Shown here one piece after another: positions 1,369-40,885 of a stretch of 43,691 nucleotides of DNA. A program made the position numbers and the translations under genes. Position 1 is the stretch's first letter; every line of letters begins with the position of its first letter. Under the pieces are notes generated by a model. That model was not told the DNA's origin. It saw nothing but the letters and a program-made list of their open reading frames with translations, and did no database searches. The DNA is from a virus. Its lineage: Duplodnaviria > Heunggongvirae > Uroviricota > Caudoviricetes. Location: positions 1 to 43,691 of IMG/VR virus record IMGVR_UViG_2645727945_000025; one strand, written 5' to 3'.

Positions 1369-1444
1369 GCCGATATAGCTCAGTTGGTAGAGCAGCGCAT
1401 TCGTAATGCGAAGGTCGTAGGTTCGACTCCTATTATCGGCACCA
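1369..1444 (+). tRNA. thrW: tRNA-Thr (anticodon CGU)
   Basis: 76-nt sequence GCCGATATAGCTCAGTTGGTAGAGCAGCGCATTCGTAATGCG...GGCACCA folds as a cloverleaf with CGT anticodon and encoded CCA; classic phage integration target. Confidence 0.9.
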
Positions 1445-12060: not shown

Positions 12061-12777
12061 TCAAACCAGCCTTAGTTTTGTCTCAATTGCAACGCCTATA
12101 ATCTTGCAGTTTCCATTGATTGGCACGAGAGGCCATGCAGGATTAAGTCCCTTGAGGTATTTATTTCCGCCGTCGATTATCAGCTTCTTGAATGTTGCTT
12201 CGTTAGAGTCAGAAAGTTTTGCTATGACCAAGCTGCCGTTGATCGCCTCCCTTCCGGTATCGAAAAGAACGAATGTTCCCTCTGGAATGCTTAACCCAAC
12301 CGGTGCCGTCATTGAATCACCTTCCACTTTAAGCCAGAACGCATTACCTTGAATATGCGCGTCAGACTCAAGCCAAACATCTATGTCTTTAATGGTGTAT
12401 GGTTCGCATGCTTCACACCACGAGCCAGCCTGGATACTGCTTAACACCGGATACCTCTTTCCTGCTCTGTATTCCCCTGCATACCTTACGTTGGCATCGC
12501 TCTTAAGGCTTTCTGCCTGTTCTGCAACCTTGGCAGCAATTGACTGGCTAAAATCAGCAATTGAGACTTGCAACAATCGTGCAAAACCAGATGCAACCTC
12601 AACGTTTAGCGCGTTTCTGCCATTAAGATAATGCCCTACCGCTCCTTGGGTGATACCCAGTTCATCAGCGATTGAGTATTGGGTTATTCCCAATTCTTTC
12701 TTTTTTGACTCATACAAAGCCTTAAGACGCTTAGCGTCTTCGAGCTGTTCTGTCGTCAGTGATTTTTTATTTTCCAT
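12061..12777 (-). CDS. cI: CI repressor (HTH plus S24 LexA-like autocleavage domain), 238 aa
   Basis: Recalled similarity to lambda CI throughout (LTTEQLEDAKRLKALYE..., FWLKVEGDSMTAP..., C-terminal S24 domain). Confidence 0.9.
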   Translation of the reverse strand: MENKKSLTTEQLEDAKRLKALYESKKKELGITQYSIADELGITQGAVGHYLNGRNALNVEVASGFARLLQVSIADFSQSIAAKVAEQAESLKSDANVRYAGEYRAGKRYPVLSSIQAGSWCEACEPYTIKDIDVWLESDAHIQGNAFWLKVEGDSMTAPVGLSIPEGTFVLFDTGREAINGSLVIAKLSDSNEATFKKLIIDGGNKYLKGLNPAWPLVPINGNCKIIGVAIETKLRLV

Positions 12778-36617: not shown

Positions 36618-36800
36618 TTAGTCACATTCTATTTCTTTTGTCGAGGTCCATACATAAGGGTCTGAGCAAACAACCTCACCATTTATCATGACGTCATAGC
36701 CCATTAGATATGAGTTACCACCAACAATCTGAGCGGCTATGACGCTAATGCTGGCGGCGCAGGCTGCACCAAAAACGAAACCAATTAATATATTTTTCAT
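36618..36800 (-). CDS. Small secreted/periplasmic miniprotein (60 aa) with signal-peptide-like N-terminus
   Basis: Track ORF; [17 protein letters not shown] then a Cys-containing mature part. Confidence 0.4.
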
Positions 36801-36831
36801 TTTAATTCCAAATAGTTATAGGATGAAAGTT

Positions 36832-37017
36832 ATGACCATAGAAGAACGTCTGAACAACATTGAGTTGAACCAAACCCTGCTTGACCAGCGACTTTCAGAT
36901 CTTGAGCTTAAAGATCTAGATGCGCAAATATCAGAAGCAGAAGCCAAGCTCTCCAGCCTAAACCACCGCAAGAAGCAAATCCGCAACAGAATTACTCAGG
37001 GACGCGGAAGCTGTTGA
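36832..37017 (+). CDS. Possible coiled-coil miniprotein (61 aa), convergent with the mnt-operon ORF
   Basis: Internal ATG of track ORF 36739-37017 with AGGA RBS; low-complexity heptad-like sequence. Confidence 0.3.
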   Translation: MTIEERLNNIELNQTLLDQRLSDLELKDLDAQISEAEAKLSSLNHRKKQIRNRITQGRGSC

Positions 37018-37201
37018 GGTGGGATGCTAGGTCTCTATCGTTAAAATCAAGGCTGCTAATCATTTCATTGTAGATGGCGTTTTTATCTTCCATTGGCAGT
37101 CTTGAGTAAACCAGACACAGAGCATATTTCAGGGAGTTTAGCTCTTTCTCTAGCTCTTCCTTGCTTGACGTTTTTGACTTAATAAACTGTTTTTTATTCA
37201 T
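36992..37201 (-). CDS. Hypothetical 69-aa protein translationally coupled to mnt
   Basis: Start adjacent to the mnt stop with AAGGA RBS inside the mnt 3' end. Confidence 0.45.
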   Translation of the reverse strand: MNKKQFIKSKTSSKEELEKELNSLKYALCLVYSRLPMEDKNAIYNEMISSLDFNDRDLASHLNSFRVPE

Positions 37202-37434
37202 TTTGCATCCTTACCATACATGGTTTTCAGTGTTTCAAGTAGCGCATCCCTGAATTTGTCAGCCTCTTTCTGAGCAAATTCATTGCTATTAAGCGATCTA
37301 CCACAAACAGCATCTTCGATAATCTGTATTATTTCAGCATTCATGGAACGCTTGTTATGTTGCGCCCTGGCTTTAACCTTTGCCTTTAACTCTTTGGAAA
37401 TCCTGATATTTATTTGCGGCTCTTCGCGTGACAT
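37198..37434 (-). CDS. mnt: Mnt-like ribbon-helix-helix maintenance repressor
   Basis: N-terminal RHH sequence resembling P22 Mnt (..RISKELKAKVKARAQHNKRSMNAEIIQII.DA); divergent from arc. Confidence 0.75.
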   Translation of the reverse strand: MSREEPQINIRISKELKAKVKARAQHNKRSMNAEIIQIIEDAVCGRSLNSNEFAQKEADKFRDALLETLKTMYGKDAK

Positions 37435-37487
37435 ACCACCTCCATAGCATTTTGGTGATATTACTATTGCATCACTGCGATCACAAT

Positions 37488-37504
37488 GGTATAACGGTTA
37501 TACC
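37488..37504. promoter_or_regulatory. 17-bp perfect palindrome GGTATAACGGTTATACC in the mnt-arc intergenic region (candidate operator)
   Basis: Read directly; located between the divergent RHH repressor genes. Confidence 0.45.
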
Positions 37505-37522
37505 AAATTGATTGGAGGTAAT

Positions 37523-37696
37523 ATGATAGTCAAGTCAGACGCACCAAAGTACCCTTTGCGCATCCCATTAGAGGTTAAGTTAGCAATCGAGAAGTCAGCG
37601 AAAGAAAATGGTCGCTCAATAAATACCGAGATGGTAATGCGGTTAGTGGATAGTTTAAGGCGGGATAGTTCTAAAGGTAATCTAGCAAAAAGTTGA
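37523..37696 (+). CDS. arc: Arc-like ribbon-helix-helix repressor (57 aa)
   Basis: GGAGG RBS; RHH motif ...PLRIPLEVKLAIEKSAKENGRSINTEMVMRL; directly upstream of ant. Confidence 0.7.
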   Translation: MIVKSDAPKYPLRIPLEVKLAIEKSAKENGRSINTEMVMRLVDSLRRDSSKGNLAKS

Positions 37697-37726
37697 AGCC
37701 CCAACTGCTGTAACAGTCAGGGCTTC
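37695..37726 (-). terminator. sar-like antisense terminator in the arc-ant intergenic region (approx.)
   Basis: GAAGCCC/GGGCTTC stem; only on the minus strand is it followed by a T-run (AACTTTTTGC). Confidence 0.4.
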
Positions 37727-37758
37727 GGTATCAACAAAACTTACGAGGTATTATTGAT

Positions 37759-38649
37759 ATGTCAAGCTTAGCAAAGTCAACTGTAAATTGCACTAATAGC
37801 ATCATCATTTCTGACGTCAAGATTCATATGGATTCAGAGGGTCGTTACTCGCTTAATGACCTTCATGTAGCGTCTGGAAAGGAGGAAAAACATCAGCCAG
37901 CTTTCTTCATGCGTAGAAATGAAACTATTGAATTGATTAATGAAATTTTTAATTCTGCGGATATGCAGAATAAGAATCCCGTCCTTTCTAAGAAAGGTAG
38001 ATATGGTGGAACCTACGTGTGCAAGGAGCTTGTTTACTCCTACGCCATGTGGATTAGCGCAGCCTTTGCGCTGAAGGTTATCCGTGCATATGACGCAATG
38101 GTTACTACCACACAAGAGAGGAAGGCTATTGGCGGTAAAACTTCAGTAGCTGAACGCACACCGCTACGCGATGCAGTAAACATGTTGGTAGGAAAGAAAG
38201 GACTTCGCTATGACGATGCATACAATATGGTTCATCAGCGTTTTGGTATTGACAGCATTGATGAACTTTCAATTGAACAAATCCCGCTGGCCGTAGAGTA
38301 CATCCACAGGGTAGTGCTTGAAGGTGAATTCATCGGCAAACAAGAGAAGAAAACCAACGAGCTTTCTGCAAAAGAAGCAAACAGCCTTGTATGGCTATGG
38401 GATTATGCCAACCGCTCACAGGCATTATTCCGCGAACTGTATCCGGCGCTGAAACAAATTCAATCGAACTATTCCGGCAGATGTCATGACTGCGGTTATG
38501 AGTTCTCCCGTATTATCGATATAGCGAGAGACGTTTTAATCAATCACTCACGAGATGTTGATATCAATGAGCCAGACGGACCAACGAATCATTCCGCATG
38601 GATGAGACTTAAGAATAAAGAATTACCTCCTTCAGTACATAACTACTGA
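37759..38649 (+). CDS. ant: Antirepressor Ant (296 aa)
   Basis: Size and position after arc; KilA-N-like N-terminus. Confidence 0.85.
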
Positions 38650-38667
38650 CAGATAACCAACGCAACG

Positions 38668-38692
38668 ACCCAGCTTCGGCTGGGTTTTTTTA
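38668..38692 (+). terminator. Intrinsic terminator after ant
   Basis: ACCCAGC-TTCG-GCTGGGT hairpin followed by TTTTTTTAT. Confidence 0.6.
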
Positions 38693-38749: not shown

Positions 38750-40885
38750 ATGACAGACATTACAGCCAATGTGATCGTATCGATGCCTTCGCAACTCTTC
38801 ACTATGGCTCGTTCTTTTAAAGCCGTAGCCAATGGAAAAATTTATATCGGTAAAATTGACACTGACCCGGTAAATCCTGAAAACCAGATTCAGGTTTATG
38901 TGGAGAACGAAGACGGCTCTCACGTTCCTGTATCGCAGCCAATCATCATTAACGCTGCCGGATATCCTGTATATAACGGACAGATTGCCAAATTCGTAAC
39001 TGTGCAAGGCCATTCTATGGCTGTTTATGATGCATATGGGGCGCAGCAGTTCTATTTTCCTAATGTGCTGAAGTATGACCCTGATCAACTCAGGTCTGAA
39101 TTATCAGCTCAGGGTGGAGATAAGATTGTTGGTAGTTCGTATGGCGGAACCGTCTATACAGACTACAGTCCATCAGAATTCATTAAGTTTGCAGAATTCA
39201 CCGTCCCAACAAGTCTTTCAAACAATAGACAAGCCGTTAAATATATAGACGGATTTTGGTATGTATGGAATGGAACATTTCCATACAATACTGGAACGTC
39301 AAATCCTGGTAATAATGACACATGGAAATGCGTTGGACTTCTAAATGGTTTTTCGGTTAATGACGCTCAGAACTTTGGCTTCACAGGGGGTATGGACGAT
39401 GCACTTCCAGCGCTAAATGCGATGATTAGAAGCCCATTTTTTGAAATGTTTTTCCCTATTGGAAGTGAAATTAATATTTCGTCTGACTGGAATCTCCGTT
39501 CAAATTTATATATAAACTTTCACGGTTCAACAATCAACTGGATGGGTGCTGCTTTCTCAAGTTCTGATGTTGTGAATGGTAGCGAGATGGCTATTTTAAA
39601 TACGCCAAATTTTTCAGGTGGAACTACAGGGGCACTCGTAAACCTTCATCTGTCAAACTTAAATATTAAAGCAAATGATTACGCAATAGGCATAAGTGCA
39701 AGGAATATTACAAATTTCTCTATAGAGAATGTTTATGTAGAGAAAGCGCAACGTCAAGGAATTAATGTATCTAATTGCCAGAATGGATGTATTAATCAAA
39801 TAACTCTGAAAGATTGCTCTCCTTTATCTGATAAAGGATTTACTAGTTCACAGCTAGAGAGTTGGGGCGATGGATTGATTGTATGGTATGGAAGCACTAA
39901 CGTATCCATTGATAACATTAGAGTTGAATCAGGAAATAATTCACGAGGAGGTCGCTGCGGTATCTGTATCGATGGTTATGCTCCATCCGGAAAGCCAGAT
40001 TCACGCAATATTTCTGTAAATAACGCTTATGTTTACGGTTATGACAGGCCTATACATACCGAACTATGCGGTATTGTTACCGTAACTAACAGTGTTTTCG
40101 AATACAACTCAGGCTCTGACACGCATCACTTTTTGCAATGTGGTGTCGTCGTGTGGAATGTCCTTGAAACCACTACTTTTATCAACTGCACGTTTCGCAC
40201 AGATATGCGGTTTATGAAAAACTCAGGCGCTAAGGCGAAATTCATAAAATGTAATGTGTACAAAACATCAAGCACTGAGCCTATGTTTATAACAGGTACA
40301 GAGCAAACAGGTATAGTTAATTTTGATGACTGCTTACTTTCTCATGCCGGTGGTGAATGGGGGGCTTGGAACTGTTCATTAAGTTTTAATGGTTGCACGA
40401 TATCATCTGATTCTGCTGGATCTGTTATTAATTTTGGTAGCGAATCCATACCAAAAAATATCACTATTGTTAATTCACATCTGTTAAACACATCAATATC
40501 AGCACTGTTCGCACCTGGATTTACTGAAATTCATCTTTCTAATTCAACAATAAATGGAGATGTTAATTGCGGACCTTCTGCCAGACTTCGTGTAAATTCA
40601 TGCGATATATATGGAGTTGTTACATGCAATAGTGTAATGAGATACAACGGACAGAAACCAAATAAATTAATTTATTTGCAAAATGCAGACCAGCAATACA
40701 ATGGCATGTGGCTAGGAACGCGCCCACCACTAGGTGCTAGACCAGATGGATCTGGAGATTGGTTGAGGGGTGATATAGTTTTTAATCTCGACGCCATAGA
40801 GTCAACACCATTCCAATGGTATTGCGTAACCCCAGGATCGCCTGGAAGATGGGCTGTATCTGGAACTCTTGGCGCAGCTTCTTAA
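38750..40885 (+). CDS. Tailspike (P22 gp9-family head-binding N-terminus plus divergent receptor-binding domain), 711 aa
   Basis: N-terminal ~115 aa recalled as the conserved P22/HK620/Sf6 head-binding domain; remainder AT-rich with repetitive beta-strand-like segments. Confidence 0.9.

Follow-up and report, generated by a model that had tools for sequence, protein, structure and literature searches.

The immI switch of phage P22, the mechanism of which was established by Susskind, Sauer, McClure and colleagues, provides the pattern against which related loci can be read. Its organization is taken here from the annotation of P22-pbi (AF527608), in which a leftward mnt gene is divergent from rightward arc and ant genes, the whole group lying between the genes for a DNA-transfer (ejection) protein and the tailspike. 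The Mnt operator of P22 (Omnt) is a perfect palindrome of 17 bp, built around a G and containing the core ACGGT, and its Arc operator (Oarc) is 21 bp long and imperfect in symmetry. An antisense RNA, sar, composed of two stem-loops and ending in the arc-ant spacer, starts at the base preceding the ant ATG from a promoter, Psar, annotated in ant codons 3-10 and carrying an extended -10 element in codons 3-5. How far these parts may diverge in sequence while their arrangement is retained can be followed in a locus of Escherichia coli prophages.

This locus lies in a stretch of 43,691 nucleotides (IMG/VR record IMGVR_UViG_2645727945_000025), all of which is referred to here as the window. To judge from sequence comparison, the region is very probably an intact immI of a P22-like (Lederbergvirus) E. 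coli prophage with divergent alleles; as a locus it is an ordinary member of the immI group, and what is new is the operator sequence. Five RefSeq E. coli chromosomes match the 401 bp around it at 100% identity, and 43 genomes cover at least 80% of these 401 bp. A tRNA-Thr(CGU) gene is found at 1369-1444; the integration site of P22 is such a tRNA-Thr gene (thrW). The nearest named phages, Escherichia phage vB_EcoP_Kapi1 (MT813197) and Salmonella phage vB_SemP_Emek (JQ806763), hereafter Kapi1 and Emek, both belong to Lederbergvirus. Gene order, orientation and the two bordering genes are as in P22, and the view of the first-pass annotation that the switch is intact holds, as all of the P22-type parts are present and uninterrupted and the three open reading frames are of full length (Table 1).

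Table 1. Features of the immI region and its borders, in window coordinates; promoter elements are predictions.
Feature	Coordinates	Strand	Basis or description
Gene left of the immI genes, 668 aa	34229-36235		RefSeq annotation "DNA transfer protein"
mnt-like repressor gene	37198-37434	minus	78-aa ORF, RHH and C-terminal tail
GT.ATA.TAC	37455-37464		invariant in clade
Putative Pmnt -10, TAATAT	37458-37463	minus	within invariant GT.ATA.TAC; 17 bp from TTGTGA
TTGCA	37467-37471		invariant in all 10 clade sequences
Putative Pant -35, TTGCAT	37467-37472	plus	TTGCA invariant in clade, next 10 bp variable
Stretch with no pattern	37472-37481		varies freely in clade
Putative Pmnt -35, TTGTGA	37481-37486	minus	CACAA nearly invariant in clade (one variant TACAA)
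CACAATGG.ATAAC.GTTATA..AAA.T.AT	37482-37512		conserved 31-bp block, palindrome at centre
Putative Pant extended -10, TGgTATAAC	37487-37495	plus	left palindrome arm; 17-bp spacing from TTGCAT; conserved
17-bp perfect palindrome, probable Omnt	37488-37504	none	conservation; P22 format and position
arc-like repressor gene	37523-37696	plus	57-aa ORF, RHH; Shine-Dalgarno GGAGG at 37514-37518
sar antisense RNA, about 70 nt	37687-37758	minus	Rfam RF00262, covariance model, fold
sar stem-loop 2, Rho-independent terminator	37695-37726	minus	14 pairs, 4-nt loop, UUUUU at 37691-37687
sar stem-loop 1	37730-37758	minus	folds; anti-Shine-Dalgarno CCUC in loop and upper stem
ant Shine-Dalgarno GAGG	37746-37749	plus	sequence; covered by sar
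ant antirepressor gene	37759-38649	plus	296-aa intact ORF; KilA-N N-terminal domain and P22_AR_C (Pfam)
Putative Psar extended -10, TGcTAAGCT	37765-37773	minus	ant codons 3-5; predicted start at 37758
Terminator 3' of ant	38667-38686	plus	terminator scan
Tailspike gene right of the immI genes	38750-40885		Head_binding domain

The two divergent genes, separated by a control region of 88 bp, both encode ribbon-helix-helix (RHH) proteins (Pfam Arc PF03869, E 6.8e-13 for the leftward and 2e-12 for the rightward product), as had been claimed. Structural matches distinguish them. For the 78-aa product the best PDB match is P22 Mnt (1mnt, E 8.7e-9, residues 3-72), with Arc at only 0.013-0.035; for the 57-aa product the best matches are Arc (1arq, E 1e-6) and pArc (E 1.9e-12), with Mnt weaker (E 1.7e-4). 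Identity to the P22 counterparts is 36% for Mnt and 38% for Arc. The C-terminal extension of the mnt-like protein, about 35 aa in length, aligns at low identity to P22 Mnt up to residue 72, and no C-terminal Pfam family was detected in this protein at E <= 0.01. The arc gene lies directly upstream of ant in the same orientation, and the Ant protein begins with a KilA-N domain that differs from the N-terminus of P22 Ant. Beyond ant, a terminator is annotated in P22-pbi, Emek and epsilon34 at the place equivalent to that found here. In RefSeq, an identical prophage is annotated with two "Arc family DNA-binding proteins" and one "P22AR C-terminal domain-containing protein," and its sar RNA, promoters and operator all stand without annotation. 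The main import of the comparisons that follow is correct annotation of these elements.

The control region contains the perfect 17-bp palindrome that the first-pass annotation had placed between the divergent genes. Its sequence, GGTATAACGGTTATACC, consists of 8-bp arms, GGTATAAC and GTTATACC, around a central G at 37496, and it is the sole match to itself in the window at up to three mismatches, with 0.01 expected by chance. Perfect palindromes of this general form (8+0/1+8) are not rare, as four occur in the whole window where Markov simulations give 1.6 +/- 1.2; among simulated 88-bp spacers, 0.36% held one. The real evidence for the palindrome is its conservation. For this comparison, the DNA beside each mnt start was extracted from 80 IMG/VR loci encoding Mnt relatives, and a control-region clade of the window Mnt type, comprising 10 sequences with 61-100% Mnt identity, was aligned. 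Relatives in which Mnt identity is no more than 61-81% show hardly any change in the 17 bp, and the palindrome is invariant or nearly so until that identity falls to about 61%. Within it, a T-to-C substitution at 37490 occurs in two prophages. The palindrome lies at the centre of a longer conserved block with extended imperfect symmetry (21-nt arms, 76% complementary), the flanks of which may hold part of a putative Arc operator. It shares with P22 Omnt the length of 17 bp, the perfect symmetry, the central G and the ACGGT core, and the distance from its centre to the arc ATG is similar in the two phages (25 and 27 bp); the arms are different, being GGTATAAC in the window and AGGTCCAC in P22.

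Conservation around the palindrome also suggests where the divergent promoters lie. The putative Pmnt, TTGTGA-17-TAATAT, has the layout of P22 Pmnt (TTGAGA-17-TATCAT), and in all three of P22, Emek and the window its -35 element is 1 bp from the edge of the palindrome and 10 bp from the central G. The opposing promoter is harder to place. Pant of P22-pbi is annotated as TTGACA-17-TATATT; in the window it is rather likely, on the pattern of conserved bases, that Pant corresponds to TTGCAT-17-TGgTATAAC, with the extended -10 element falling within the left palindrome arm. Its weak points are a C at -7 and a -35 element with three matches of six, and the list produced by a consensus promoter scan did not include it. 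Two other positions were considered for the -10 element and rejected. At the P22-like place left of the operator (37476-37481) the window has TGCGAT, which is variable in all relatives. The sequence CACAAT (37482-37487) is conserved, but has no usable -35 element at 16-18 bp, and its conservation is better explained by the Pmnt -35 on the opposite strand. With Pant placed in the left arm, this promoter would be about 14 bp nearer the operator than that of P22, and its -10 element would be within the operator, unlike the arrangement in P22.

A further issue is which of the two repressors recognizes the palindrome. Mnt rather than Arc is its probable ligand, a view that draws on sequence conservation and on analogy with P22. 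Like the palindrome itself, the beta-strand of Mnt (REEPQINIR) shows no variation in the clade. In Arc, residue 11 is Pro in the subclade of the window and Asn in other clade members, with the palindrome unchanged; this residue aligns with P22 Asn11, which we take to be a base contact. That the palindrome instead serves as the operator of Arc, or of Arc and Mnt jointly, with Arc regulating its own expression by occlusion of the Pant -10 and Mnt acting elsewhere, is unlikely. Such a reading gains from the fact that the palindrome overlaps the likely Pant at its core, as P22 Oarc does, from the near-identical core TATAACGGTGATA that L058-type phages have at the Oarc position, and from a conserved block of 31 bp, which exceeds the needs of one 17-bp operator. 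Set against these points are not only the Pro/Asn switch in Arc beside the invariant Mnt strand, but also the perfect symmetry and odd length of 17 bp, typical of Omnt and different from the imperfect 21 bp of P22 Oarc, and a spacing to the Pmnt -35 that does not differ among three immI types.

Assignment of the palindrome to Mnt leaves the operator of Arc to be located. No equivalent of P22 Oarc is visible in the window and no convincing symmetric Arc site was found in the control region, where the spacer shared by the two promoters (37472-37481) is variable in the clade, a result that also counts in favor of Arc as a ligand of the palindrome. The candidate places are the palindrome flanks (37482-37512) or 37455-37471. 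A split site, suggested by an apparent co-variation of ATATTAC (37458-37464) with GTAATAT (37518-37524), was rejected because in two relatives, L106 and L131, ATATTAC is retained while the second element reads GAAGTAT; the Pmnt -10 and the context of the arc Shine-Dalgarno sequence and ATG are a better account of the pair. Residues Arg2, Gln6, Asn8 and Arg10 of Mnt are identical in the window and Emek despite different operators, so specificity is unreadable from those residues. Between the window and P22, Mnt residue 6 changes from Gln to His, and the Arc beta-strand reads K-Y-P-L-R-I in the former and Q-F-N-L-R-W in the latter. Recombinants joining the palindrome to another mnt or arc were absent from an IMG/VR scan, in which the palindrome was found only with its own mnt/arc type; other matches to it occurred in unrelated contexts, in a number fitting a rough chance estimate. 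A scan of genome contigs with an Arc protein query yielded zero confirmed loci.

Downstream of arc, conservation of a different type is observed, in which an RNA structure is maintained while much of its sequence is replaced. The first-pass annotation had proposed a sar-like antisense RNA in the arc-ant spacer, and this is borne out by a match to Rfam sar (RF00262) at 37757-37691 on the minus strand, which covers positions 1-68 of the 68 in the model and scores 67.4 bits, the gathering score being 43 (E 5.6e-12). The match shares both helices, context and strand with the family, and the difference is limited to the sequence of stem-loop 1 and its loop, which tracks the ant leader allele. RNA from the minus strand of the spacer folds into two stem-loops (-28 kcal/mol, z = -6.46). 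The GAAGCCC/GGGCTTC hairpin that had been recognized in the spacer constitutes the outer 7 pairs of the 14-pair stem of stem-loop 2, and the T-run, ascribed to the minus strand only, is indeed confined to it: the terminator scan reports this strand alone, the sequence after the stem being AACTTTTTG (RNA tail AACUUUUU), and the plus-strand tail, GGTATCAACAAAAC, is without a T-run. In the window, unlike P22, the arc stop codon runs into this structure, with TGA (37694-37696) extending into the base of the terminator stem. Complementarity of the predicted RNA to the ribosome-binding site of ant is complete, and the plus-strand ant leader can form mirror-image hairpins around the Shine-Dalgarno GAGG. 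The P22 sar locus is covered by small-RNA-seq reads (PMC13397905).

Much of this could in principle be produced by a generic intrinsic terminator of leftward transcription, with no antisense regulator and with the Rfam match reflecting terminator conservation. This is very improbable. Most of the Rfam score does come from the near-invariant 14-pair stem, and the Psar -10 of the window, TAAGCT, is weaker than the common TATACT; yet the match extends over the full model, stem-loop 1 included, and stem-loop 1 is maintained by compensatory changes in many alleles. Its sequence is wholly allele-specific, with GUUGGU/ACUGAC in P22, the completely different AUCAAUA/UGUUGAU in the window, and GUCGUUAA and GUCGAUGA in others, while folding of individual sequences gives the same kind of hairpin in all of 27 variants. 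A covariance model built from 25 sar variants finds sar beside mnt homologues in 82 of 88 sources and scores the window at 88.8 bits (37686-37758). In an alignment of 53 distinct rows, fitted to the covariance model itself, 94.6% of cells are paired and compensatory changes occur in 8 of 21 pairs, a level reached by none of 500 shuffles; when the registers are slid, pairing falls to 32-48%. Stem-loop 2 is paired in 100% of cells in these 53 relatives, with double changes in 4 pairs, and stem-loop 1 has compensatory changes in 4 of its 7 pairs. RNAalifold on a MAFFT alignment recovered only the terminator helix, missing stem-loop 1 because it is out of register between alleles; the latter was recovered by the per-sequence folds together with the covariance-model alignment.

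A putative promoter for this RNA provides an additional argument for an antisense regulator over a simple terminator. Psar, which the first-pass annotation had been unable to place, is now placed by homology to the minus strand of P22, where 6 nt separate tTGcTATACT from the start. The corresponding sequence of the window is tTGcTAAGCT, TGACAT and an A at 37758. Among unique promoter/sar combinations, which come from several otherwise divergent ant 5' alleles, TAnnCT is present in 46 of 46 and the TG extension in 44 of 46, at a fixed distance, and this constancy of the extended -10 across all 46 alleles is hard to reconcile with a terminator acting by itself. The -35 region is poor in both phages (GTGCAA at 37793-37788 in the window, GTGTTA in P22). 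An alternative pair, TTGACT (37781-37776, minus strand) with TCAATA, was set aside in favor of the conserved TGnTAnnCT at the P22-homologous place. The earlier proposal that the antisense RNA begins inside the 5' end of ant is thereby only partly retained: the putative promoter is within ant, but the RNA would start, by homology with P22, at 37758, one base upstream of the ATG (37759).

Taken together with what is known for P22, these elements suggest how the switch might operate, although every step is here inferred for the window allele by analogy. The scheme draws on the P22-pbi annotation, on summaries in PMC2629481 and PMC13397905, and on the work of Susskind, Sauer and McClure. In a lysogen, a Mnt tetramer on the palindrome would overlap the likely Pant extended -10 element and so block arc-ant transcription, and its binding would free or stimulate the overlapping, divergent Pmnt, the -35 element of which abuts the operator. 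After infection, Pant would fire and then be shut down by Arc. The sar RNA transcribed from Psar would pair with the ant leader, blocking translation of Ant, which if unrepressed would inactivate the main prophage repressor.

It is also conceivable, if quite unlikely, that the locus is a decaying remnant in which the parts persist in a dead switch, owing for example to a non-functional Ant or a dead Pant. Rapid flux characterizes the immI ('ant moron') regions, of which many degraded versions are found (PMC2629481); a 65-bp deletion of the control region is present in Kapi1 and in two IMG/VR contigs, the palindrome of two prophages carries the substitution at 37490, and the Pant -10 departs from consensus. 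Against decay, the three open reading frames are of full length and translation signals are intact, and the control region is the same in numerous independent prophages of E. coli and is conserved in relatives that have diverged.

Kapi1 illustrates what loss of the control region may entail for an otherwise similar locus. In DNA sequence it shows 97% identity to the window across mnt, the sar terminator and the 3' part of arc; it has another ant allele, and it is without the 65 bp that correspond to 37469-37533, so that the window represents the intact reference form of the Kapi1 locus. The deletion removes most of the Pant -35, the Pmnt -35, the palindrome, and the arc Shine-Dalgarno sequence with the first codons. 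In a 2026 RNA-seq study, Kapi1 mnt was noted with surprise to be unexpressed in lysogens (PMC12922286). Under the promoter model proposed here such silence would be expected if Pmnt depends on the -35 and operator sequences that Kapi1 lacks; the deletion fits this published and unexplained observation, which is a further point in favor of Mnt as the ligand of the palindrome.

A broader reading, advanced only tentatively and somewhat less probable than its opposite, is that the E. coli immI clade represents a re-wired P22 switch, in which Mnt acts by occlusion of the -10 element, Mnt and Arc have new specificities, and the Arc operator has moved off its P22 position. The operator arms GGTATAAC and the Arc Pro at the residue aligned with P22 Asn11 may be part of this change, and direct occlusion of the Pant -10 would replace the start-site binding of P22. 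If this were true, the clade would supply a new specificity class for the classic Arc/Mnt model of RHH recognition. As a diverged natural set, the Mnt/operator pair and Arc are in any case possible comparison material for that model of RHH DNA recognition.

Emek presents the complementary case, in which the right part of the region is shared and the left part is not. Its sar region, Psar and ant match those of the window at about 97% over the aligned part, with 2 substitutions in the sar terminator loop, whereas its mnt and arc are other alleles, its operators are TAGTAGTACGGTACTATC, and an extra gene, orf73, lies between arc and sar. The annotators of Emek attached the label 'Defective?' to this ant allele.

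In phage Kapi1 (L001, one of the collected loci with Mnt relatives; MT813197, compared over 1771-1870), the immI locus of the window is present but lacks the 65 bp corresponding to window positions 37469-37533, and the same deletion is found in the IMG/VR contig behind a second collected locus, L016. Lost with this segment are the palindrome, the predicted Pmnt -35 element, most of the predicted Pant, and the arc Shine-Dalgarno sequence with the first arc codons. A 2026 RNA-seq study found that Kapi1 mnt was unexpectedly not expressed in lysogens and gave no cause (PMC12922286). The deletion offers a simple explanation for this silence, as it takes out both the Pmnt -35 element and the palindrome.

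A much smaller natural variant is the T-to-C change at 37490 in two prophage contigs (loci L010 and L014; GGCATAAC). The substitution disrupts the palindrome and at the same time alters the first position of the proposed Pant -10 element. Judged from sequence, this change fits an arrangement in which operator and promoter overlap, so that one mutation would weaken both. More distant variation occurs in IMG/VR loci L043-L048 and L054-L057, where the RHH repressor is of a type approximately 48% identical to the Mnt of the window, and where the control region differs and contains repeats of the motifs CACGGTGTAG and CTACACAGTGTAG. The same sar element follows this control region.

A near-invariant patch at 37695-37740, comprising the sar terminator hairpin and GGTATCAACAAA, is common to at least seven different upstream contexts, including various arc 3' ends and, in phage Emek, orf73, as well as to at least seven different ant 5' alleles. 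The patch looks like a stretch of homology at which arc and ant alleles are recombined into mosaics. At the arc end, E. coli Nord122 (L006) has one A fewer in the A5 run at 37687-37691; the resulting frameshift yields an Arc of 77 aa that reads through the sar terminator as far as the ant start, and the same loss cuts the terminator U-tract to four.

Elsewhere in the window, the 69-aa ORF is probably co-transcribed with mnt; in P22, orf59a occupies its position. P22 integrates at a tRNA-Thr gene of this kind (thrW), and the tRNA-Thr(CGU) gene thus suggests that one end of the prophage is located there. Besides the palindrome at 37488-37504, the window holds three more perfect palindromes of the 8+0/1+8 form.

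Additional features of the window, with positions and strands
Feature	Position	Strand	Remarks
tRNA-Thr(CGU) gene	1369-1444	+	near left end of window
Perfect palindrome AAGACGCTTAGCGTCTT	12724-12740		
XhlA-like 92-aa protein	36739-37017	+	just upstream of 69-aa ORF; overlaps ORFs on both strands
69-aa ORF	36992-37201	-	no family match; overlaps mnt stop codon (ATGA)
Perfect palindrome CCTTTATCTGATAAAGG	39821-39837		within tailspike gene
Perfect palindrome AATAAATTAATTTATT	40661-40676		within tailspike gene
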